Origin: Candidatus Aenigmatarchaeota archaeon
GTDB taxonomy: Archaea; Aenigmatarchaeota; Aenigmatarchaeia; Aenigmatarchaeales; JACQIB01
Direction of reading: 5' to 3'
Length of the DNA: 64,000 bases
Assembly (NCBI GenBank): GCA_016198755.1
Contig: JACQIB010000004.1
Span: forward strand, 170,913 to 234,912
Part shown: positions 6,509-43,710 of the stretch, in pieces
How positions within the stretch are numbered: the stretch's first letter is position 1
Layout of the letters: every line of letters begins with the position of its first letter
Notes under the pieces: model-generated
Told to the model about the DNA's origin: nothing
The model's database searches: none
What the model saw: the letters and a program-made list of their open reading frames with translations, nothing else
Position numbers and translations under genes: made by a program

Positions 6509-7779
6509 GCTATCCTATGCGGATAGAAGATATATTTAGGATGTCTTTGAACACAATTCTAAGCAGAAAACTAAGAAGCGGACTGACAATACTCGGAATT
6601 GTAATGGGTGTTGCAGCTGTTATAGCTCTTGTTTCTATTGGGCAGGGGTTGCAGGAGAGTGTTAACCAGCAGCTAAGCTCTCTGGGCGGAAACCTTGTAT
6701 TGATAACCCCAGGAAGTGAACGTGCAACACAGGGGTTTGGCTTTGCTGGTGGGTTTGGAGGGCAGAATTCAAAAACGCTTACTGATTCTGATTTGAGGAT
6801 AATAAAAATAATCCCTGGTATTTTGTATGCAACAGGGGTTGTTTCCGGATCTGTCTCACTCGAATATAACAGCCAGAAATCCGAATCAAGAGCACAGGGA
6901 GTTGAACCTGGTGTATGGGAACTTGTGCAGTCTGTTGACCTTGAATCCGGCAGGTTTCTTTCAAAGAGCGATCCAAATGGTGTTGTTATAGGCAACAGGG
7001 TTGCACACAGCCTTTTTAAAAAGGAAGTTGGAATAAACAGCCAGATAAAGATAAATAACAAAATTTTTCATGTTGTTGGTATATTGAAATCTACTGGAGG
7101 TTTTATTGGCGGTTCGGGAGATAACAGCGTAATAATATCCAAAACCAGCGCAGATGACATAAATCTTGTAAGTTCAGGGGAAAAGGACAGCTATTCTACA
7201 ATATATGTAAAAACCACAGAAGGTTCTGATACAGAGACAGTTTCAGGCTATATACAAGACAGGCTTAGGTCAAATCATCATGTTTCAGAGCAAAACCAAG
7301 ACTTTACAATTAACACTTCCAAAACAATACAGGCGCGCGTTGGTACGATAATAGGCACGATAACTCTTTTTCTTGGAGGTATAGCTGCAATTTCTCTGTT
7401 TGTTGGTGGGGTTGGGATAGCAAACACAATGTTCACATCAGTAATGGAAAGGACAAAGGAAATAGGCGTTCTTAAGTCCCTTGGAATGGCTAATTCTGAT
7501 ATTCTAAGGATGATACTTGTAGAGTCAGCTCTGTTAGGCCTTATGGGCGGTGCAATAGGAGTATTCTTCGGCACTCTTGCTTCTTCTATTATTTCCAGTA
7601 TAGGTGGTATTTCTCCTGCTGCAGGTCCGCTTGCAGGAAGGGCTGTAGGAACCTATGTATCTCTGGAAATGGTTTTGTTCGCTCTTTTATTTTCTGTTTG
7701 CGTGGGCGCTGTTTCAGGCTTGTTCCCAGCAAGGCGTGCAGCAAACTTACAGCCAGTTGAAGCTTTGAGATACGAGTAG
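6505..7779 (+). CDS. ABC transporter permease, FtsX/MacB family (periplasmic MacB-type domain plus 4 TM helices)
   Basis: N-terminal TM; large extracytoplasmic domain; C-terminal FtsX-like TM bundle (ITLFLGGIAAISLFVGGVGIANTMFTSVMERTKEIGVLKSLG). Confidence 0.85.
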   Translation: MSYPMRIEDIFRMSLNTILSRKLRSGLTILGIVMGVAAVIALVSIGQGLQESVNQQLSSLGGNLVLITPGSERATQGFGFAGGFGGQNSKTLTDSDLRIIKIIPGILYATGVVSGSVSLEYNSQKSESRAQGVEPGVWELVQSVDLESGRFLSKSDPNGVVIGNRVAHSLFKKEVGINSQIKINNKIFHVVGILKSTGGFIGGSGDNSVIISKTSADDINLVSSGEKDSYSTIYVKTTEGSDTETVSGYIQDRLRSNHHVSEQNQDFTINTSKTIQARVGTIIGTITLFLGGIAAISLFVGGVGIANTMFTSVMERTKEIGVLKSLGMANSDILRMILVESALLGLMGGAIGVFFGTLASSIISSIGGISPAAGPLAGRAVGTYVSLEMVLFALLFSVCVGAVSGLFPARRAANLQPVEALRYE

Positions 7780-7817: not shown

Positions 7818-8156
7818 GTGATAATATATATGCATGAACTCTCTGGAACAGCTAATGGGATAGATGTTTTAAAAGCTGCAATTGATAGCGTTGGCGGGAA
7901 AAGTCAATATTTGGGAAAAGGCAATACTGGTTTCGGTTCCTCTATTTTACATTCTGGGGAGAAAACAACTTCCGTAGTTTGGAATATGAACGGCGGACAA
8001 TACAAAATCCGCGTTGAGGGTCCGCAGGAAGGGGAAGTATCAGGATCAATACAGCAAGCTTTGGAAGGCGCTGGAACAGTCTCTTCTTTAAAACCAAGAG
8101 AAATGAACGGACCTTATCTAGTAAACGAGCGCGGAACTCCATTGCTAGAGAGTTGA
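7818..8156 (+). CDS. Small hypothetical protein (112 aa)
   Basis: ORF only; Gly/Ser-rich; no motif. Confidence 0.3.
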   Translation: MIIYMHELSGTANGIDVLKAAIDSVGGKSQYLGKGNTGFGSSILHSGEKTTSVVWNMNGGQYKIRVEGPQEGEVSGSIQQALEGAGTVSSLKPREMNGPYLVNERGTPLLES

Positions 8157-8166
8157 AATATAAAAT

Positions 8167-9183
8167 TTACAATAGACCTTTTGGAAAGAAATTCAAGGTA
8201 AATTCTTCTGTTGTAATCATTGGTTCAATATCCGTTAAAACTCTGAAAAACTTGTTTTTAATATCTCTTACAAGAGCTTCAGCATTTTCCTGTTTATCTG
8301 TAGCATACCAGAAATATATTTCAGGCCTTCCAATAACTTTGAATGCCAGATGTATGTCATGTGTACTTTTGATATAATTTACAATTTCTGCTTCTATTTT
8401 CTTTGTCATATAACGAAAGTTCATTTGTACAAAATACTGTATAAGGCCTAATTTTTTATGGACAACAAAAGGGAAAAAAGTTCTGATAATACCATCATGT
8501 ACAAGCCTTCTGAAATGGTTTCTTGCTGTTTCCATTGAGCTTCCAGAAGCTTTCCCAAGCTCCTGATAGTTTGCTAGCCCATCCACAGTATTTAGATGGT
8601 GAAGAATCTTTTTGTCTATATCATCCAAAATATATATATTTTCTGTTGGAATCTCTTTATGTATTTTTTTATATGATTTTTTCCTTGTAAAAATCTGATG
8701 ATCGAGTTTTATATTTTCCATTAAAGTTTTCGAATCATAAGATTCCAAACTATCTCCAAGAAAAGTTAATACATCATCCAGTATATTTTCAAATTCTGCG
8801 GGTTTTTTAACAAGAAACTGCACAAATAGATCCCATCTGCCGAATATGCTTCCTGCCCAGACAACATTGGGGTGGTTTTTGAAGTACTCTTTTATTTCTT
8901 TTTCTCTTTCAGCAGAAGCTCTAAGTTTAATAAAAACATGATATTGATAAATATCTAATTTCTTATATTCAACAGGAGCGAAAAATTTCCATATAATTCC
9001 CCTTTCCTTGAGTTTTCGTATCCTATATAGTATGGCATTCTTGCTTAAACCGACTTCTTTTGCCATTATTCCGAGAGGAGTCCTTGAATTTTCAAGCAAA
9101 ACAGCTAAAAGCTGCTTATCCTTCTGATCAATATTATATATCATATATGGTATATTATTAAACTGTATATTTAAATCTTTCAT
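8167..9183 (-). CDS. Tandem Lrp/AsnC-family transcriptional regulator (two HTH-AsnC + RAM units)
   Basis: Two repeats of DxxDxxILxxLxxNxRxxxxELAxxVGLS...TPGxxD-like architecture (MIYNIDQKDKQLLAVLLENSRTPLGIMAKEVGLSKNAILYRIRKL and ILDDIDKKILHHLNTVDGLANYQELGKASGSSMETARNHFRRL). Confidence 0.8.
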   Translation of the reverse strand: MKDLNIQFNNIPYMIYNIDQKDKQLLAVLLENSRTPLGIMAKEVGLSKNAILYRIRKLKERGIIWKFFAPVEYKKLDIYQYHVFIKLRASAEREKEIKEYFKNHPNVVWAGSIFGRWDLFVQFLVKKPAEFENILDDVLTFLGDSLESYDSKTLMENIKLDHQIFTRKKSYKKIHKEIPTENIYILDDIDKKILHHLNTVDGLANYQELGKASGSSMETARNHFRRLVHDGIIRTFFPFVVHKKLGLIQYFVQMNFRYMTKKIEAEIVNYIKSTHDIHLAFKVIGRPEIYFWYATDKQENAEALVRDIKNKFFRVLTDIEPMITTEEFTLNFFPKGLL

Positions 9184-24875: not shown

Positions 24876-25005
24876 TGGTGGACTCGGTGGGATTTTCTCC
24901 AAACCCTTTTGGGGTTTGCAAAGACCTTTTCGGAAAAGGGATTTGCTTTGAACCCACAACCTCTTGCTTGCAAAGCAAGCGATCTTCCAGTTGATCTACG
25001 AGCCC
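24876..25005 (-). tRNA. tRNA-Ala(TGC) with a roughly 54-nt intron in the T-loop (non-canonical position about 59/60); CCA encoded
   Basis: The minus strand reads GGGCTCG TA GATC AACTGGAA GATC G CTTGC TTTGCAA GCAAG AGGTT GTGGG TTCAAA[G-intron-T] CCCAC CGAGTCC A CCA. The exons assemble into a perfect 76-nt cloverleaf. Confidence 0.8.
24904..24953. repeat. 50-nt sequence identical to 52268-52317 (core of the T-loop intron shared by tRNA-Ala and tRNA-Leu)
   Basis: Exact match: cccttttggggtttgcaaagaccttttcggaaaagggatttgctttgaac. Confidence 0.9.
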
Positions 25006-29499: not shown

Positions 29500-29912
29500 G
29501 TCGGTTGTTAGGAATTTTTGGAAATAGCTAAAGCTAAGCTGTAAAAATAGGTCGCGGCCGATGATATTAGCGCCCCGAATAAAAAATTTTGGAGGTGATC
29601 CAGCCCCACGTTCCCGTAGGGCTACCTTCTCATAGGAGTGCAGCCTGGCAAAATTATCCCTCTCAATTCACCTCAGTCCCCACTTGGGGCCCGCCTTTCT
29701 TTCTTTCATAGAGGAAAAATACAGACTACACTTCCTGTCTGTCAGTATTGCAGCTTTCACTGCAAAACATATGACTTAGCCTTTCTTGTAAGTCTCTGGC
29801 TCGACTCTTCCCATACCCATTGCTGGAAACGAAAAAAGCCTCGCCAAAGGCTCACTCAAATGGCTTGACAGGCGGTGTGTGCAAAGAACAGGGACGTATT
29901 CGGCGAACGAAT

Positions 29913-30701
29913 TCATGCTAGAAGCTTCGAAAAAGGTTTTATAATATTAATCAACTTATACACTGATTGATTAACAAGAACATCATTATATTCTTCCTTT
30001 ACAATATCTATAGCATCTTTTTGTATATTGCCTTCTAATATTGCTATCAATCTTACATAGGGATATTTTTGTCGAATTTTCATAGCTCTATAAGCAAGTT
30101 CTACGGCTTGCAAACGTTTCCTATAATTGAAATTCATTTGCTTTACCTCAATTATTATTTTGGGTATATTTTCAGAAGGCAAGGCAAAATCTACTACAAA
30201 ATTTCTATTGGTCCTCACTAGGGCATGAAACTTATGTGAAATGCCCAATTTCTGAAAGATTTCTATATATCTTTTTTCTTGTTCTGTAGGACCTTTTATT
30301 ATTGCACCTTTCAGAGATCTTTCTTTAGACGCCTTTAAACTCATTTTTCTTGCGCGTTCAGTATCTCTAAAAGTGCCGCGTTCGGAAATTTCATAATACC
30401 TGCGTATTAAGATTTCCCTAGAAGGAATTCTTTGCATGCATTTAATTTCTTCAAACACTTTGTTTATTACTTTTTCGTCTACACTTTTTCTAAATCCTTT
30501 CTCTATATTATAGACTGTGCCTTGACTCTTCCCTATAAACTTTGCTAATTGCCACTGACTCATATTCAATATTAAACGTAGAATCAGCAATCTCTGCGGT
30601 TTTGTATATATAATTTCAGGTTTCAGTTTCCTTAAACTGTCTGTTGTTCTATATACTTCATCACAGAGATTTTTTAATTTTAGCTTGTTTATGGTAATCA
30701 C
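29913..30701 (-). CDS. Intron-encoded putative homing endonuclease: N-terminal XRE-type HTH plus C-terminal PD-(D/E)XK nuclease-like domain (262 aa)
   Basis: HTH MSQWQLAKFIGKSQGTVYNIEKG; nuclease motif FVVDFALP...IIIEVKQ (D...E-x-K). Sits entirely inside the rRNA intron, with the stop overlapping the exon junction. Confidence 0.55.
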   Translation of the reverse strand: MITINKLKLKNLCDEVYRTTDSLRKLKPEIIYTKPQRLLILRLILNMSQWQLAKFIGKSQGTVYNIEKGFRKSVDEKVINKVFEEIKCMQRIPSREILIRRYYEISERGTFRDTERARKMSLKASKERSLKGAIIKGPTEQEKRYIEIFQKLGISHKFHALVRTNRNFVVDFALPSENIPKIIIEVKQMNFNYRKRLQAVELAYRAMKIRQKYPYVRLIAILEGNIQKDAIDIVKEEYNDVLVNQSVYKLINIIKPFSKLLA

Positions 30702-30757
30702 CGATATTATATTATATCGGTAACTACTATTTAACCCTTTACAGAGCTTCTAACTTT
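29916..30757 (-). mobile_element. 16S rRNA intron (about 840 nt) in the 3' domain, carrying an HTH + PD-(D/E)XK ORF
   Basis: Exon sequence ...GGCGAACGTCAT is interrupted and resumes ...GAATTCGTTCGCCGAATACGTCCCTG (the equivalent of E. coli position about 1360-1380). Confidence 0.7.
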
Positions 30758-31059
30758 ATGACGTTCGCCTACTATGAATTCCGGCTTCATGTGGGCGAGT
30801 TGCAGCCCACAATCTGGACTAAGATTGGGTTTAGGGGGTTAGCTTTGCCTTTCGGCATTGCATCCCATTGTCCCAACCATTGTAGGACGCGTGTAGCCCA
30901 GAGAATTCGGGCCGTACGGACCTACCGTCGCCCACTCCTTCCTCTGCTTTAGCAGCAGCGGTCCCGCCATTGTGCTCTCTCCCCGGAGGGAAAGGTGGCA
31001 AATGGCAGCGTGGGTCTCGCTCGTTAACGGACTTAACCGCACGCCTCAAGGTACGAGCT

Positions 31060-31219
31060 TTCTCGTCTTAGCAGCCCTCATACAAAACATTATCTTACTT
31101 TTCTCTATGTTTTACATAATTAGCATTCCACCAACGTCGTATCAGTATTAAGTTTGAATACTGGTTGCATATCGTTGTTGAAATTTTTCAATATCCCAAT
31201 TAAATTGAGACTGCCAAGA
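31060..31219 (-). other. Insertion of about 155 nt (ORF-less intron, likely BHB-type) in the 16S near the E. coli 1050-1070 region
   Basis: The conserved CATGGCCGTCGTCAGCTCGTACC is split: ...catggccatcgtca | 150 nt AT-rich | agctcgtaccttgagg. Flanking cttggcag/ctgctaag can pair to close the insert. Confidence 0.6.
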
Positions 31220-31763
31220 TGACGATGGCCATGCAACTCCTCTCAGCTTGTCTGGTAAACCCGTTAGGCTGACCCTCATTCTGCTGTCTTCTCTGGTAAG
31301 ATGTCCGGTGTTAAATCCAATTGAACCGCATCCTCCACTCATTGTGTGTTCCCCCGCCAATTCCTTTAAGTTTCAGCCTTGCGGCCGTACTCCCCAGGTG
31401 GCCCGCTTAACATCTACACTTCGGCACTGCATGTTCACGTAGAACGTGCAACACCAAGCGGGCATCGTTTACGGCTGGGACTACTGGGGTATCTAATCCC
31501 AATCGCTCCCCCAGCTGTCGCCCCTCACTGTCAGACTCGTTTTCGGTAGACGCCTTCGCCACAGGTGGTCCTCCACGGATTAAAGGATTTAACCCCTACA
31601 CGTGGAATACCTCTACCGTCTCCCGATCTCAAGGCTTGGAGTATCTCCAGCGCGCCTGACAGTTAGCTGCCAGATTTCACCAGAGACTTTCAAGCCCAGC
31701 TACGGGCGCTTTAGACCCAATAAACGCGATAGCCATTTGGACCGCGGGTATTACCGCGGCGGC

Positions 31764-31795
31764 GTGTGCGAACAAAGTCTACTGACTTTGAACAT
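31764..31795 (-). other. Hairpin insertion of about 30 nt inside the universal 515F/530-loop sequence of the 16S
   Basis: GTGCCA | tgttcaaagtc-agtag-gactttgttcgcaca | CGCCGCCGCGGTAATAC. The insert forms a 7-bp perfect stem, caaagtc/gactttg. Confidence 0.6.
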
Positions 31796-32249
31796 GGCAC
31801 CCGTCTTACCCAGTCCTTATTCGCCTAGGTTTTTAGCCTAAGCAAAAGCTCGTGCAAAGCACGAGCACTCGAGGTTCCCTTCTCACACGCTAATGCATTG
31901 GAAAGTTTTCGCTCCTGCTGCGACCCGTAGGCCCTGCGCTCATGTCTCAGAGCGCATCTGGAGGCTCACACTCTCATGTCCCCTACCCGTCACAGGCTTG
32001 TCAGTTTTATAAAGCAGGTAGCTTATGCTACCAAAAATTATTTTGGCAAACTAAGTTTGCCTATGCACTTTACACTGACAACAACCTGATAGGCCGCAGT
32101 CCCATTCTATGGCGCCGGAGCTTTCACTTTTGGTGCATTCCAGCATCCAAAAACTATGGGGCATTAGCCTCACTTTTGCGTTCACTTTCAAAAGAAAGTG
32201 GAATTCGCAAGATTATTCCCCACCATAGAGTAGGTTAACTACGTGTTAC

Positions 32250-32921
32250 TCAGCAGTGCGCCGAGGGCAAGAGCGGATTAAATAGAACCTTACCAGTCTT
32301 TTTACAATAAAAATAGTTTTTAAATTCCTTAGAAAGACATCTTACTTTTTCTAACTTTAGTGGATGTTTAAATTTTATTATTCTACAAAACTTTCTAAAA
32401 TTTTTAGCACCTTTTATTCGCCACCAATATACATCGTTTTTTCCATAAACTTTTGATACATGAATACCATATGTTTCTAATAATTCTTTACTCCATATGC
32501 AAAAATCCTTAGATTTAATTTGTAGTTCTATTACAGGATATTCATATATAGACATCATGGTCTTTCTCTTATACCTTTGGACTTCTTTGAATACGGAACA
32601 ATCACCATCAAAAAATCCTATAAGAAAATTCATCTTTTCTTTTCTATTTATGTGCACTGGTGGAGTGATGTCATGAGACTTTTTCCCTGGTTTTATATGA
32701 TAAAGTCTCTTAAATTTTTCGTATAGCTTACGATCACTTACCCTTATCTGAAATACTCTTTTTCTTAATTTGTAAGTAACCTTGTTTTTTGCAAATTTTT
32801 GAAGATTTTTTACTATATCATCTCTGAAGCGCTTGTTATTTGTGTAGACATAGACATACGGTCTATATTTTTCTAAATGACCATCTGCAGCTATTAAACC
32901 GGCCATATAAGAAAATTTCAT
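32250..32921 (-). CDS. LAGLIDADG-family homing endonuclease (double-motif, intron-encoded)
   Basis: Two LAGLIDADG motifs are present: MAGLIAADGHL and LIGFFDGDCSV. Confidence 0.85.
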   Translation of the reverse strand: MKFSYMAGLIAADGHLEKYRPYVYVYTNNKRFRDDIVKNLQKFAKNKVTYKLRKRVFQIRVSDRKLYEKFKRLYHIKPGKKSHDITPPVHINRKEKMNFLIGFFDGDCSVFKEVQRYKRKTMMSIYEYPVIELQIKSKDFCIWSKELLETYGIHVSKVYGKNDVYWWRIKGAKNFRKFCRIIKFKHPLKLEKVRCLSKEFKNYFYCKKTGKVLFNPLLPSAHC

Positions 32922-38388: not shown

Positions 38389-38548
38389 TGGGGCCCGGAC
38401 CGAGATTTTCCCGCCCCACCTGAGGGGGTAGGGCTGTAGGGGGAAACTTCCCCCTGAGCTTTGAACTCGGGTCTAGGGCTGTCTGCTCCGCACGCCTTAA
38501 GCGCGCTGGGCCACAGGCCCACATGCTAACCACTACACCATCCGGGCC
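38389..38548 (-). tRNA. tRNA-His(GTG) with a genome-encoded G-1 and two introns (about 30 nt after position 37; about 54 nt in the T-loop); CCA encoded
   Basis: The minus strand reads G(-1) GCCCGGA TG GTGT AGTGGTTA GCAT G TGGGC CTGTGG [30-nt intron] A GCCCT AGAC CCGAG TTCAAAG [54-nt intron] CTCGG TCCGGGC C CCA. G-1:C73 is the hallmark of tRNA-His. Confidence 0.7.
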
Positions 38549-38553
38549 ATGGT

Positions 38554-39129
38554 TCAGAAATATCTAAGCAGAGGAGATTTAAAAGGTTGCGCGGGATGGA
38601 AAAAGTGCTTGGAAACTTCGAAAATGTTGTCTGTTGGAAGAAGTATTTTTCCTATATTGACAGCTTCGACCATTGGAATATCATTTGCTCCATCTCCAAA
38701 AGCCATAGTAATTTTGGCTTCGCAAAAGTCTGAAAAGAAGTGAATCCAGCTGTCTTTTACAGAAACGTTTACCTGAACATCAAAGAGCTTCCCGCTCCTG
38801 AACAAAAGTTTATTGCATGCCAAATAGTCTATTCCTAGCTCTTTGCAAACCAGTTTGGCCTGCAAATCAAATCCTCCTGTTATAACAGCTGTTGCAAAAT
38901 TATTTTTCTTAAACATCTTAACAGCTTCTTTTACTCCTTTTTTCAGTGTATACTTTTCTGATACTCTTAAAATATCCTTATACTCGATTCCCTCAAGGAT
39001 TTCAATTCTCCTTCTTAACCCATCTTCCCAGTTTATAACTCCGCACAGACCAAATTCTGTTATTTTCTTTATTTCCTTTTCTTTTCCTGTAAGTTTAGCA
39101 ATTTCAATTAACATTTCTTCCTCTATCAA
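38554..39129 (-). CDS. HAD-superfamily phosphatase (phosphoserine phosphatase SerB-like); annotated start is TTG
   Basis: Motifs II to IV are present (ITGG; K...GDGAND). The motif I sequence FDLEGTL lies immediately upstream of the first in-frame start codon; see findings. Confidence 0.65.
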   Translation of the reverse strand: MIEEEMLIEIAKLTGKEKEIKKITEFGLCGVINWEDGLRRRIEILEGIEYKDILRVSEKYTLKKGVKEAVKMFKKNNFATAVITGGFDLQAKLVCKELGIDYLACNKLLFRSGKLFDVQVNVSVKDSWIHFFSDFCEAKITMAFGDGANDIPMVEAVNIGKILLPTDNIFEVSKHFFHPAQPFKSPLLRYF

Positions 39130-39244
39130 AGTCCCTTCTAAATCAAAAACAACGAGTCCATTGATTGGCTGTACATCGCACTCAGAAAACTATATTGTAA
39201 CAAGTGCTTTTAAGCCTGTTAGGCAGAACCATTGACCAGTAGAA

Positions 39245-39343
39245 TCAAACTGGCTTTGCAGGGTATATTGCCACGTAAATCGCGCCAATAATTATAAGCG
39301 CAGCTAAAATAAACTGAACAATTCTTTTCAGGTTAATTACCAT
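39245..39343 (-). CDS. Hydrophobic 32-aa peptide MVINLKRIVQFILAALIIIGAIYVAIYPAKPV (single TM), 5 nt downstream of the Cys-rich peptide
   Basis: ATG...TGA. Tightly coupled to the upstream mini-ORF. Confidence 0.25.
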   Translation of the reverse strand: MVINLKRIVQFILAALIIIGAIYVAIYPAKPV

Positions 39344-39348
39344 TCAAA

Positions 39349-39429
39349 TCAACAGCAGCCACAGCCGCCCTTGCCTGAACAGTCCCCGCAACCGCAGGAA
39401 CTACCATGCTTTTTCTTTTCTTTTGCCAT
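39349..39429 (-). CDS. Cys-rich 26-aa peptide MAKEKKKHGSSCGCGDCSGKGGCGCC (metallothionein-like or RiPP-precursor-like); not in the ORF track (<60 aa)
   Basis: ATG start, TGA stop; 7 Cys in the last 15 residues. An AT-rich TATA-like stretch (ctttttatag) lies about 25 nt upstream on the coding strand. Confidence 0.35.
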   Translation of the reverse strand: MAKEKKKHGSSCGCGDCSGKGGCGCC

Positions 39430-39501
39430 TATAAAAATTAGATAATTAGCTATAAAAAGCTATATCAAAAACCTCTTATTTGTGTAAATACAATAATTTG
39501 T

Positions 39502-39957
39502 ATGGCTCTTTCAGCACAAAGGTTGATGCCACCAGAGCCCAGAAGGGTGGCACCTATCACACCTGCAGAGCTGACAGATAGAGAAAGATTTGGCTGGCTT
39601 TACTCACCTCCGCGTGGAAAAACAGTTGGATTTGAGTATATAGAAGGGGATAAGTTTTGTCTTGTAGTTGGTGAATTAAGTTACAGAAAACCGCCAAAAT
39701 ATTCTACAAGAAAACCATATTCTATAGATGTTACATTTGCAAAATACGAAGGTAGGGTACTTGGAGATGTGCTGGACAATACTTCTGCACGCATAGCTCC
39801 GGAAGGGCTTTTGTTCCGTTCGCATACCCCTGTTCATCTGTCCAGAGATACATTTTTGGAAAAGGTGCAGACTGTGAAGGGAATTATCAAAGGGACTAAT
39901 GAACAGATAGATTATTTTGAAGGTATAGTTGAGGGAGAAAGATTTGCAGCAGACTAA
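39502..39957 (+). CDS. Hypothetical protein, member 1 of a tandem three-gene paralog family (151 aa)
   Basis: Shares GK(T/N)VG(F/I)(E/A)Y, CL(V/L)xVG and ID(V/Y)x(F/L)(A/K)(K/F)(Y/A)(E/N)G blocks with 40485-41072. C-terminal DTFLEKV resembles 39992-40471 (ADFLREV). Confidence 0.5.
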   Translation: MALSAQRLMPPEPRRVAPITPAELTDRERFGWLYSPPRGKTVGFEYIEGDKFCLVVGELSYRKPPKYSTRKPYSIDVTFAKYEGRVLGDVLDNTSARIAPEGLLFRSHTPVHLSRDTFLEKVQTVKGIIKGTNEQIDYFEGIVEGERFAAD

Positions 39958-39991
39958 TGGTTTATTAACCTTTTCTATTGAATAGGATTCT

Positions 39992-40471
39992 ATGGGTATG
40001 GGAGGTTGGGGCATTTGGTTTGCCTTAAAAACTGCTGCAGAACAGGAAACAGCTACTAAGGCAAAATATGAAGTGGTGTTCCCTATAGCTGACATTTTAA
40101 GGCCAGCAGAATATGAGAGGTTCATAAATTGGGTAGGTCATAGGGCAGTTGGAGTTGGTTATGTTAATCCAGACCCTACTATGCCGCAGATGCAACTTGC
40201 AGTTGGTAAACTATCTACTATAGCTCCAACGGGAGGAAAACAGGACATTTCACTTAATTTTGATGGGGAAGGAACAGTGCTTTCAGCAGGTAGTATTTTT
40301 CACTCCGGAACAATGGAACTCCCTAAAAACACTCCTGTATATACGGGAAAGGCAGATTTTCTGCGAGAGGTAAGGAAACTGGACCCGCTTGTAAATTCTA
40401 GAAGGGTTGTGAGAGAACCTTATGAAGCGTTTATGAAAAAAGTGGAAGAGAGCAGGTTCCCGTTCCAGTAG
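39992..40471 (+). CDS. Hypothetical protein, member 2 of the tandem paralog family (159 aa)
   Basis: C-terminal similarity to member 1; same strand with a 35-nt spacing. Confidence 0.45.
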   Translation: MGMGGWGIWFALKTAAEQETATKAKYEVVFPIADILRPAEYERFINWVGHRAVGVGYVNPDPTMPQMQLAVGKLSTIAPTGGKQDISLNFDGEGTVLSAGSIFHSGTMELPKNTPVYTGKADFLREVRKLDPLVNSRRVVREPYEAFMKKVEESRFPFQ

Positions 40472-40484
40472 TTTCTGGAAAGTA

Positions 40485-41072
40485 ATGGGTTTTTATCCTT
40501 TCTTATATAATAACTTTCTTATGGGAATTCTTGGTTGGAGGAATGGAACGCGACACGAGCCTAGGACAAAGCCAACCAATGGACAGACAGCAGTCAATTA
40601 TCAGCAAAAACTTTATGTTAGCTCTCTGCTGGATCAAGCAAACCAACCAGCCTATAGGCAGCGGCTTGTTGGGAAAAATGTTGGAATTGCATACGAACAA
40701 CCTTCTGGAACAGAACCCTGTTTACTTTCTGTTGGAACAGTTATGACACCGCCAGAAGGTGTTATGCCTTGGAGACATATAAATAAAGATGGGATAGATT
40801 ATGTTGAACTAAAGTTTGCAAATGGTATTTCTGTAGATAGGAATAGACTGAAAGTTAATGTTACTGCAGTAAAGGCCGATACTGTTGGGGTAAATGCTGA
40901 TACTAGTGCAGAACCGTTCCTGCCAAGTGCTGTTATTTGTACTAGGAGAAAGGAATTCGCAGATTTAGCTGACAGAGTTGCTGGACTTATAATGCGAGAT
41001 ATGACTATGCAAGTTAGAATGGAGGATTATTATACTATACTGAATAAAGCCAATAAAGATCTGGAAATATAA
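40485..41072 (+). CDS. Hypothetical protein, member 3 of the tandem paralog family (195 aa)
   Basis: Motif similarity to member 1; 13-nt spacing from member 2. Confidence 0.5.
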   Translation: MGFYPFLYNNFLMGILGWRNGTRHEPRTKPTNGQTAVNYQQKLYVSSLLDQANQPAYRQRLVGKNVGIAYEQPSGTEPCLLSVGTVMTPPEGVMPWRHINKDGIDYVELKFANGISVDRNRLKVNVTAVKADTVGVNADTSAEPFLPSAVICTRRKEFADLADRVAGLIMRDMTMQVRMEDYYTILNKANKDLEI

Positions 41073-41115: not shown

Positions 41116-43710
41116 ATGCCTGAGGTCTGGGAAATAACTGCTGGTGAGGTTTTAAAAGAGTTAAATGGTTCTGAAGCTGGGTTAAGAACAGAAGAGGCGC
41201 AGCGCAGGCTGAAAAAATTTGGGCCAAACACAATAGAAAGAAAGCATGGACATGGCCCGTTAACAATTTTTGCAGAGCAGTTCAAGAGCTTTTTGGTTTT
41301 GCTTTTGGTTTTTGCAGCTGTAATTTCAGTTTTTTTCGGGGAGTTTATTGACTCTGCTGCTATAGCTATAATATTAGTTATAAATGCATTGTTAGGATTC
41401 TGGCAGGAATATAAGTCTGAAAAAGCCATAGAAGCCATTAAGAAAATGGTTGTTGAAAGAGCTATTGTTCTGAGGGATGGGACTAAATTGGAAATTCCAG
41501 CTGAAGAGCTTGTGCTGGGAGATATTGTTTTTATAGAAGCTGGTGAAAGAATACCAGCAGATATAAGGATTTTGCAGAGTTTTGGATTAAGGCTGGATGA
41601 ATCTATACTTACAGGAGAGTCTGTTTCTGTTGGAAAAATTACAGAAAAAGTACAGGGAAAACAACTGGGAGACAGAAAAAATATGCTTTACATGGGAACT
41701 TTGGCTGTTGAAGGTACAGGAAAAGGTGTTGTTGTAAGCACAGGTTCAGGAACAGAAATGGGAAAAATAGCAAAACTTATAGAAGAACCTGAGGAACCTA
41801 CAAAATTCCAGAAAGATATGGATAAGTTCGGGAAGAGAGTAGGCTATATAATAGTGGTTATTGCACTGGCTGTTTTCCTTTTGGATATGCTGCGCGGTGC
41901 TGGTCCAGTTAACTCTGCACTCATTGCAATAACTTTGGCTGTGGCAGCTGTGCCCGAAGGTTTGCCTGCTGTTGTAACAATAACCCTTGCAATAGGAATC
42001 CAAAAAATGGCAAAAAGAAACGCTTTCGTGCGCAGATTATCCTCAGTGGAAAGTTTGGGTATGATAACTGTTATTTGCGCTGACAAGACAGGCACAATGA
42101 CTTCTAACCAAATGACAGTCAGGAAAATATGGGCTAAAGGAAAGGAAATTGATATTACTGGTCTGGGCTATACTCCTGAAGGGAAATTTTTAGACGGGAA
42201 GAAAGAAACAACACTTGGAAAGGAAGAACTTTTGCTTTTGCGCACTGGTATGCTCTGTAATAATGCTGCACTCAGGCAAAATAAAGGCTGGGAAATTATT
42301 GGTGACCCGACTGAAGGGGCATTAATTGTAGCTGCTGAAAAAGCAGGTGTTAATGTGAAAGTGGAGAGAATATATGAAATACCCTTTAGCTCTGAAAGGA
42401 AGATGATGAGTGTTGTTTCTAAAGAAAAAGACGGTTTGTATGTGTATACAAAGGGAGCGCCGGAAATTATTCTTAATCATTGTATAAGAGAAATCGGAGG
42501 GCAGATGACATCAAGTAAAAAATACAATATACAGGAAGAGTTCAGGAAAATGGCTGAATCCGGTTTAAGGGTGCTTGCTCTGGCTTACAAACCTTTTGAT
42601 GGGAATCTGAAACGAGCAGAAGAAGGCTTGGTTTTCATTGGATTAGTAGGTATGATTGATCCTCCAACAGAAGAAACAAAACATTCTGTAGCTGTCTGTA
42701 AGGAAGCTGGTATAAGGCCAATAATGATAACAGGAGATCATTTGCTTACAGCAAAAGCAATATCAAAAGAAGTTGGTATAGAAGGAGAAGCTGTTACAGG
42801 GGAGGATTTGGAAAAGACAGATGAGGAATTGACAAAAACTCTGGATAATATTTCTATATTCGCAAGGGTTTCCCCGCTACAGAAGCTAAAAATTATAGAA
42901 GCTCTGCATAAGCGCGGAGAACTGGTTTCAATGACAGGAGATGGTGTGAATGATGCACCGGCTCTGAAAAAGGCTGATGTTGGAGTTGCTATGGGCAGGA
43001 GAGGAAGCGATGCAGCCAGAGAAGCTTCAGATATAGTGCTTGCTGATGATAATTTTTCAACTATTGTTTATGCTGTGGAAGAGGGGAGGGGAATTTTTGA
43101 CAATATAAAGAAATTTGTACATTATCTTATAGGAGCGAATATTGCAGAAGTTCTGGCTGTCCTTGGTTCCTTAGTATTTTTCCTTCCACTGCCCTTTACT
43201 CCATTGCAGCTTTTATGGATAAATCTTACAACAGATGGTTTGCCTGCATTGGCGCTGGGCTTTGAGAAAAAACAGAAAGAAATAATGAAAGAAAAGCCAA
43301 AAGGAACTGAATCTGGTATATTGAAAGGGAGCTGGAGTTTCCTGTTTGCTGTAGCTGTTGTAGGTGCTGCAGCAGTTCTTTTTAGCCTGTTCCTCACACT
43401 TCCTCAGGGAATTGAAAAAGCCCGCACCGTGGCGTTCACAACAATGACGTTTTTTGAGTTGTTCCTCGTTTTCAGCATACACGCTGGAAAAGATGGGCTG
43501 TTAAAAGCAAACCCATTCTCAAACACTAAGCTTGTGCTGGCTGTATTAACTTCAGTTTTGCTTCAACTCTTAGTTATTTATTTTGTTCCTCTACAGACAC
43601 TTTTCGATACAGTTCCACTCGCTTTAGGCGATTGGCTAACTATTTTGCTCTTGTCTGCGACAGGTCTATTTGTTTCTCCAAAGCTTTTCCTCGAGAAAAA
43701 TCAGGTTTAA
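41116..43710 (+). CDS. P-type ATPase, type IIA (Ca2+/cation-transporting)
   Basis: DKTGT(M)T phosphorylation site; PEGLP in TM4; TGDGVNDAPALKKADVGVAMG hinge; TGES actuator motif. Confidence 0.9.
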   Translation: MPEVWEITAGEVLKELNGSEAGLRTEEAQRRLKKFGPNTIERKHGHGPLTIFAEQFKSFLVLLLVFAAVISVFFGEFIDSAAIAIILVINALLGFWQEYKSEKAIEAIKKMVVERAIVLRDGTKLEIPAEELVLGDIVFIEAGERIPADIRILQSFGLRLDESILTGESVSVGKITEKVQGKQLGDRKNMLYMGTLAVEGTGKGVVVSTGSGTEMGKIAKLIEEPEEPTKFQKDMDKFGKRVGYIIVVIALAVFLLDMLRGAGPVNSALIAITLAVAAVPEGLPAVVTITLAIGIQKMAKRNAFVRRLSSVESLGMITVICADKTGTMTSNQMTVRKIWAKGKEIDITGLGYTPEGKFLDGKKETTLGKEELLLLRTGMLCNNAALRQNKGWEIIGDPTEGALIVAAEKAGVNVKVERIYEIPFSSERKMMSVVSKEKDGLYVYTKGAPEIILNHCIREIGGQMTSSKKYNIQEEFRKMAESGLRVLALAYKPFDGNLKRAEEGLVFIGLVGMIDPPTEETKHSVAVCKEAGIRPIMITGDHLLTAKAISKEVGIEGEAVTGEDLEKTDEELTKTLDNISIFARVSPLQKLKIIEALHKRGELVSMTGDGVNDAPALKKADVGVAMGRRGSDAAREASDIVLADDNFSTIVYAVEEGRGIFDNIKKFVHYLIGANIAEVLAVLGSLVFFLPLPFTPLQLLWINLTTDGLPALALGFEKKQKEIMKEKPKGTESGILKGSWSFLFAVAVVGAAAVLFSLFLTLPQGIEKARTVAFTTMTFFELFLVFSIHAGKDGLLKANPFSNTKLVLAVLTSVLLQLLVIYFVPLQTLFDTVPLALGDWLTILLLSATGLFVSPKLFLEKNQV

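Follow-up and report, generated by a model that had tools for sequence, protein, structure and literature searches.

Two small open reading frames encoded 5 nt apart on the minus strand, ORF1 and ORF2, are best regarded as genuine, unannotated and co-transcribed small-protein genes of a Candidatus Aenigmatarchaeota archaeon, whose translation is predicted, as they are conserved in a second lineage, differ between the lineages in a codon-phased manner and are preceded by a characteristic promoter geometry. The reading we favor, with a probability of roughly 40%, is that they specify a co-translated pair, in which a cationic peptide would bind metal through six thiolates and a single-pass membrane peptide would be its anchor or partner; together the two would correspond to a PF12669-type protein split in two. 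In this case the module would be both split and reordered, as the parts of the family are here two polypeptides encoded in reverse order. The DNA analyzed, referred to below as the window, is the whole contig stretch of 64,000 nt. A preliminary description had proposed an unannotated micro-operon at this position, a proposal that the selection signature, the promoter geometry and the missing gene calls in the European Nucleotide Archive (ENA) and Logan assemblies all support, but had overlooked PF12669, to our reading the closest formal resemblance of the pair.

ORF1 (39349-39429, minus strand; ATG at 39429, TGA at 39349) would encode a peptide of 26 residues, MAKEKKKHGSSCGCGDCSGKGGCGCC, and ORF2 (39245-39343, minus strand; ATG at 39343, TGA at 39245) a predicted single-pass membrane peptide of 32 residues, MVINLKRIVQFILAALIIIGAIYVAIYPAKPV. 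Between them the sequence reads TTTGA, a 5-nt spacer at 39344-39348 on the same strand. Coordinates and sequences are as first described, with the exception that ORF1 contains six cysteines rather than seven. These six residues (23% of the peptide) lie at positions 12, 14, 17, 23, 25, and 26 in the pattern CxCxxCx5CxCC, forming CGC, CGDC, and CC motifs, and are accompanied by eight glycines and five lysines, with no aromatic residue (Phe, Tyr or Trp), making ORF1 both lysine-rich and cysteine-rich. Serine, glycine, and cysteine, all three of them serine-derived, account for 17 of its 26 codons. The hydrophobic core of ORF2 spans residues 8-27, with K6 and R7 ahead of it and K30 behind, and the two positive charges on the N-terminal side of the helix suggest an N-in topology. 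We considered a fusion of the two frames through read-through or a -1/+1 frameshift and were able to rule it out: the spacer places a TGA of the ORF2 frame immediately 5' of the ORF2 ATG, the ORF1 frame meets a TAA three codons past its own TGA, and stops are present in all frames.

Cysteine richness by itself is weak evidence that ORF1 is coding. The window contains three ORFs of at most 40 residues with at least six cysteines, compared with 0.12 on average across 100 mononucleotide shuffles, and its other cysteine-rich short ORFs lack the promoter and conservation evidence seen for ORF1 and ORF2. Neither ORF had been called by the gene callers of the ENA and Logan assemblies, where contigs identical to the window locus are present in four Logan runs (L006-L009).

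The second lineage was reached through the neighboring SerB-like protein (P0002) and comprises loci from three ENA metagenome assemblies (L001-L003). The preliminary description had named conservation in related genomes as a check, and both mini-ORFs, the identical 5-nt spacer and both TGA stops are indeed retained in all three loci. In L001 the pair occupies 7123-7203 (ORF1, MAKEKKKHGSSCGCGDCTGKGGCDCC) and 7209-7307 (ORF2, MVINLKRVVQFILAALIIIGAIYVAIYPAKPV), and it is identical in L002 and L003. Across the two ORFs there are 18 nucleotide differences between the window and L001, 15 of which fall at third codon positions (binomial p = 1.9e-5), corresponding to 14 synonymous and three non-synonymous codon changes. 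ORF1 accounts for six synonymous and two non-synonymous changes, with all six cysteines retained, while I8V is the only amino acid change in ORF2, alongside eight synonymous changes. None of the remaining five frames, on either strand, has more synonymous than non-synonymous changes, and each of them contains stops.

Estimated by NG86 between the window and the second lineage, dN/dS is 0.043 for ORF1 (dS 0.76), 0.030 for ORF2 (dS 0.46) and 0.040 for the two combined (dS 0.56), compared to 0.225 for the neighboring 151-aa gene (dS 0.57) and 0.117 for the adjacent P-type ATPase (dS 0.42). Both ORFs are thus under strong purifying selection at the protein level, stronger than that acting on the ATPase. 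The two lineages differ by only about 10% in DNA. The synonymous divergence of the pair is as high as that of its neighbors, so that its conservation does not merely reflect recent shared ancestry. Separately, codons 9-23 of ORF2 (39275-39319, minus strand) form a run of 15 consecutive codons without a synonymous change between the lineages, while the 17 flanking codons contain all eight. A rough estimate for such a gap (p about 0.1) is not significant and the run may be due to chance, although an additional constraint at the nucleotide level is conceivable here.

A TATA-like box, TTTTTATA, lies within GCTTTTTATAG at 39451-39458 (minus strand) and ends 21 nt 5' of the ORF1 ATG. The GCTTTTTATAG region is identical in both lineages, and the 21-nt distance is the same in the window and in L001. 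More broadly, a strict TTWAWA motif ending 19-24 nt before the ATG is found for 9 of 37 long window genes, against 2.1% of all ATGs. It is plausible that the box acts as the archaeal promoter of a leaderless mRNA starting at the ORF1 ATG. Many genes of the window likewise carry a TATA-like box (of the GTTTAAATA and CTTTTATA types) that ends 21-24 nt before the ATG, without a Shine-Dalgarno sequence, and a distance of 21-24 nt leaves no space for a 5' leader; leaderless mRNAs therefore seem common in this genome.

ORF2 has no promoter of its own. The hexamer GTTGAT (39348-39353, minus strand) matches the GGTGAT part of the Shine-Dalgarno consensus at five of six positions and stands 4 nt before the ORF2 ATG, making it a possible weak ribosome-binding site, with termination-reinitiation as the alternative. 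Given this motif, the missing promoter and an ORF1 stop only 5 nt upstream, the translation of ORF2 is probably coupled to that of ORF1. The corresponding anti-Shine-Dalgarno sequence, GGATCACCTCC, is located at the 3' end of the 16S rRNA gene within the window, and operon-internal genes of the window carry motifs of the GGTGAT/GGAGG type.

The 16S gene itself appears to have an unusual structure. It is an archaeal small-subunit (SSU) rRNA gene at 29590-32921 (minus strand) whose Rfam match ends at 30689, while its true 3' end, with helix 45 and the anti-Shine-Dalgarno sequence, lies at about 29591-29601, and a weak match to the 3' part of the SSU model is seen at 29745-30033. An ORF with an HTH domain (29913-30701) lies within this interval and the 5' end is overlapped by a LAGLIDADG ORF (32250-32921), so that large insertions or introns, bearing ORFs of the homing-endonuclease type, seem to interrupt the gene. 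Two further RNA genes may be present. A 155-nt intergenic patch at 38390-38548 (minus strand), with 62-67% GC compared to about 40% for the genome, has complementary ends (GCCCGGA ... TCCGGGC), a D-arm-like TGGTGTAGTGGTTAGCAT and a T-arm-like GAGTTCAAAGCTC, and probably represents a tRNA gene, interrupted by one or more introns, that neither ARAGORN nor Rfam detected. A second tRNA gene of unusual or interrupted form may lie at 24936-24998 (minus strand), where a partial Rfam tRNA match (model positions 8-63) reaches 30.9 bits against a cut-off of 29 and ARAGORN reports none.

The pair lies between a phosphatase-like gene and a divergent operon. The next gene downstream, encoded on the same strand, specifies a SerB-like HAD phosphatase (38554-39171; TIGR00338, E = 2.5e-29, below the cut-off). 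Upstream, across 72 bp of shared intergenic DNA, a divergent operon encodes orphan proteins of 151, 159, and 195 aa, a type IIA P-type ATPase (41116-43710) whose best NCBIfam matches are Ca-ATPases of the PMR1 and SERCA types, and an orphan of 340 aa. The SerB-like gene is cut off from the pair in L001-L003 by a convergent F420-oxidoreductase gene (615 nt), showing that the pair stays with the ATPase operon and not with serB. A Pfam scan of the ORFs of at least 120 aa across the 64 kb detected no feoB and no radical-SAM, YcaO or lanthipeptide enzymes, and the motif GxPNxGK[ST] occurs in no long ORF of the window.

Several features of these neighbors deserve mention in their own right. In the SerB-like gene (38554-39192, minus strand, when counted to the upstream stop) there is no ATG, GTG or TTG upstream of the catalytic FDLEGT motif, and an in-frame TAG stands at 39190-39192 where L001 reads TAT. 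The L001 copy (8001-8444) has a frame open to a GTG 30 codons upstream and is cut to 147 aa beside hicAB. Both copies appear to be decayed, unless the gene uses an unusual start or decodes TAG. The F420-dependent oxidoreductase gene of L001-L003 lies between the two copies of an imperfect direct repeat, about 13 nt long (GGTGTGATTCTGC / GGTGTGGATTTTGC; L001 7300-7330 and 7990-8025), which is present as a single copy in the window at 39215-39250; this arrangement suggests either an insertion that duplicated its target or the loss of DNA between the repeats. The 151-, 159-, and 195-aa genes (39502-41072, plus strand) are distant paralogues (BLASTP E about 0.003) whose products match no Pfam, NCBIfam or PADLOC family, and in L001 the second and third paralogue positions are occupied by ORFs of 80 and 64 aa. 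The 151-aa protein, the sole one of the three to be searched, is 100% identical to HY362_03285 of a "Candidatus Aenigmarchaeota archaeon" metagenome-assembled genome and has just two relatives among 5.8 billion protein clusters. Its AlphaFold2 models (best pLDDT 58.9, the others about 37) were too poor for a fold search.

The natural ORF1 and ORF2 peptides have no significant match in Pfam, NCBIfam or PADLOC, and for PF12669 (profile length 44) both fall below the gathering cut-off of 27 bits. The end of ORF2 reads ...YPAK-PV and the start of ORF1 M-AK-EKKK, and on this basis we designed an in silico permuted join of ORF2 residues 1-30 and ORF1 residues 4-26, placing the helix, a lysine-rich linker and the cysteine tail in that order. 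This join, and only this artificial join, matches PF12669 at 28.2 bits (E = 2e-6) over profile positions 3-44 of 44, and its L001 counterpart reaches 27.3 bits. ORF1 alone scores 9.4 bits (profile positions 21-44) and an untrimmed permuted join 7.9 bits, and neither ORF2 alone nor the natural-order ORF1-ORF2 concatenation yields a match.

The two halves of the join were then varied in turn. When the real helix is combined with a shuffled tail, or with a tail in which the cysteines are changed to serine, the match is lost. When the real tail is combined with other helices, that of a VTT-domain protein gives 13.1 bits, the reversed helix 7.9 bits, an ATPase helix no match, and five natural helix cores 8.6, none, none, 15.0, and 16.8 bits; a shuffle of the whole peptide gives 9.9 bits. 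Five composition-preserving shuffles of the helix core gave 25.0, 12.6, none, 24.1, and 14.9 bits. The real helix is therefore the top scorer among 15 variants, but since two of the five composition-preserving shuffles reach 24-25 bits, much of the helix signal is compositional, and the result speaks for a shared architecture rather than proven descent. In our reading, ORF1 and ORF2 taken jointly have the architectural and compositional features that serve to recognize PF12669.

The resemblance extends to an Ile/Ala/Val/Tyr-rich helix, a Lys-rich linker, a Cys/Gly-rich tail and a similar total of 53-58 aa. PF12669 ORFs are found downstream of feoB, at times fused to the C-terminus of FeoB, and predominantly in Firmicutes and Bacteroidetes; their cysteine motif, Cx3-5Cx2-3Cx6-8C, has been linked to iron binding (PMC8749426). 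Their translation is undemonstrated, and they are thought to be small, Cys-rich, FeoC-like metal-binding accessories (PMC8749426). As with our pair, these ORFs are very short and frequently overlooked, and their function is unproven (PMC8749426). Other features set the pair apart. In place of a single helix-linker-tail polypeptide there are two ORFs in both lineages, with the tail encoded first and the helix second, and the host is a DPANN archaeon. Basic residues follow the helix in typical PF12669 proteins, whereas those of ORF2 precede it. No four ORF1 cysteines fit the published spacing, neither a neighboring feoB nor a FeoB fusion is found among the scanned ORFs of at least 120 aa within the 64 kb, and NCBIfam has no match to the permuted join. 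For these reasons, namely the split and reordered arrangement, the cysteine spacing, the lack of a nearby feoB and the silence of NCBIfam, we refrain from assigning the pair to PF12669. It would be at most a variant of the family, a PF12669-like module in a novel split and reordered arrangement.

Among other known systems, ORF1 can be compared with the metallothioneins. With 26 aa, 23% Cys, CxC, CxxC, and CC motifs and no aromatic residues it falls within the operational definition of a metallothionein, resembling the bacterial examples SmtA/BmtA and MymT in these respects, and its motifs suggest that it may form a metal-thiolate cluster. The label "metallothionein-like" in the preliminary description is thus apt in this operational sense, but not as a family assignment, as ORF1 has no Pfam or NCBIfam match to described metallothionein families at E values up to 10. 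With only 26 aa and six cysteines it is also shorter than SmtA/BmtA and MymT, and differs from them in its probable translational coupling to a membrane peptide. We know of no characterized archaeal metallothionein. A C-terminal cysteine cluster with possible iron or Fe-S binding is shared with FeoC and the small Cys-rich Feo accessory peptides (PMC8749426). FeoC, however, has a winged-helix fold, a length of about 80 aa and a gene that belongs to feoABC, while our pair has neither that fold, nor nearby feo genes, nor sequence similarity. Finally, ORF2 recalls KdpF, MgtR, and sarcolipin/phospholamban in being a single helix of about 30 aa beside an operon for a SERCA/PMR1-type ATPase; it shares no sequence similarity with them, is transcribed divergently from outside the ATPase operon, and the comparison draws only on the adjacency seen in two lineages that are close relatives.

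The searches for additional relatives described here yielded none, nor any intact helix-linker-tail intermediate. The SerB-like neighbor had no match in GTDB genomes, none of 600 pattern matches to the fused peptide in JGI metagenomes was confirmed, and a word-indexed protein search with the permuted join gave no candidate. At 80 mostly DPANN ATPase loci (best identity 53%) there was no Cys-rich/helix pair beside the ATPase. A DNA pattern of the cysteine spacing (CGCx2Cx5CxCC plus stop) recovered nothing but simple repeats of TGC/TGT and frames interrupted by stops from JGI metagenomes and IMG/VR, an exhaustive HMMER search with the 36-aa stop-to-stop translation of ORF1 against 1.84 billion representatives gave one spurious 13-repeat protein, and tblastn found no relative among plasmids and only noise in all fetched loci. 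Given that the best GTDB relatives of the ATPase are only 53% identical, the lineage is poorly sampled and the absence of relatives says little. We also looked for vestiges of a tandem duplication, comparing the region upstream of ORF1 with ORF2 and the region downstream of ORF2 with ORF1, and rejected this idea as neither comparison rose above shuffles.

The strongest alternative to a split PF12669-type protein, although a rather unlikely one, is that the two peptides are unrelated orphans sharing a transcript, with ORF1 acting as a cytosolic metallothionein-like buffer and ORF2 as a regulatory micropeptide of the neighboring SERCA/PMR1-type ATPase. Single-pass peptides of about 30 aa that regulate P-type ATPases are well known, and this explanation would account for the metallothionein-type features of ORF1, for the largely compositional nature of the PF12669 signal and for the ATPase operon being the only gene cluster that adjoins the pair in both lineages. 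Such adjacency proves little, however, in lineages about 10% diverged in DNA, ORF2 matches neither the KdpF nor the sarcolipin families, no comparable Cys-rich peptide and no relative of either ORF was found beside the ATPase homologues of 80 other, mostly DPANN, genomes, and the conserved 5-nt coupling of the two ORFs suggests a joint function. The same coupling could be taken to mean that ORF2 is a hydrophobic peptide of the type I toxin kind, with ORF1 mainly delivering ribosomes to it as in mok/hok. A 32-aa single helix beginning 5 nt past the ORF1 stop, without a strong ribosome-binding site, would suit this role, and the L001 region borders mobile toxin-antitoxin genes (hicAB and a nucleotidyltransferase). 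A mere coupling ORF would not need the amino acid constraint seen for ORF1, where dN/dS is 0.043 and every cysteine is kept, and with no antisense promoter or RNA evident and no PADLOC match we regard a toxin as improbable.

Still less probable is the RiPP/transport pair considered in the preliminary description, in which ORF1 would be a RiPP precursor and ORF2 its immunity or export partner. The Cys-rich C-terminal core, the short charged N-terminus and the adjacent small membrane peptide are what such a system might look like, but the putative leader has only about 11 residues and the 64 kb (scanned ORFs of at least 120 aa) contain no radical-SAM, YcaO, lanthipeptide or other maturase, nor is there a peptidase-ABC exporter beside the pair; DPANN genomes are, moreover, small and poor in secondary metabolism. 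The abundance of Ser, Gly, and Cys codons in ORF1 (17 of 26) would also fit a leader peptide on which ribosomes stall to control the phosphoserine phosphatase-like gene, which follows on the same strand in the window and lacks its own canonical start near a promoter. That linkage is broken in L001 by the F420-oxidoreductase gene, yet both ORFs remain under purifying selection there; the SerB-like gene itself looks decayed, with its TAG in the window and its truncation in L001, ORF2 is left without an explanation, and to our knowledge leader-peptide attenuation has not been established in archaea. We consider this highly improbable, and to the same degree the notion that the region is non-coding, consisting of chance ORFs in a GC-rich patch or of a structured small RNA. 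In favor of this notion, the predicted fold of the 203-nt region is better than that of its shuffles (z = -3.05), Cys and Gly codons are self-complementary and the ORFs are too short for gene callers. The substitutions, however, are codon-phased and fit only the two proposed frames, while a predicted hairpin loses its closing pair in L001 and no Rfam model matches the region.

These comparisons, all drawn from sequence, enable us to propose a model for the split PF12669-like pair. Transcription would proceed from the TATA-like box, starting at or beside the ORF1 ATG 21 nt on, and produce a leaderless bicistronic mRNA. Translation of ORF1 would yield a soluble, positively charged peptide of 26 residues, whose six close-set cysteines most likely bind metal through their thiolates, be it iron, an Fe-S cluster, zinc or copper. 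ORF2 would then be begun 5 nt past the ORF1 stop, through reinitiation or the weak ribosome-binding site, and its product may serve as an anchor or partner that interacts with the metal-binding peptide and keeps it at the cytoplasmic face of the membrane. Under this model the pair may descend from a PF12669-type gene. A specific form of this history, which we consider doubtful but somewhat more probable than any of the rival explanations above, is that an ancestral membrane-anchored PF12669-type protein of about 55 aa was split and circularly reordered, its parts now being translated separately from one leaderless mRNA, reassembling at the membrane and functioning without FeoB.

If this history is correct, the PF12669 module would have a FeoB-independent function, and proteins this small could evolve by fission and permutation. 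The immediate impact of our findings is modest, as the evidence comes from two uncultivated lineages that are close relatives. Proteins of fewer than 50 aa are routinely missed, and ORF1 and ORF2 went uncalled despite dN/dS values below that of the adjacent P-type ATPase. Should the PF12669 interpretation hold, ORF1 and ORF2 would represent a natural "domain dissection" of a widespread, uncharacterized family of Cys-rich mini-proteins and would show this family not to be bound to FeoB. Should it fail, the locus would still provide a clean case of a lineage-restricted, strongly constrained metallothionein-like peptide in an archaeon.
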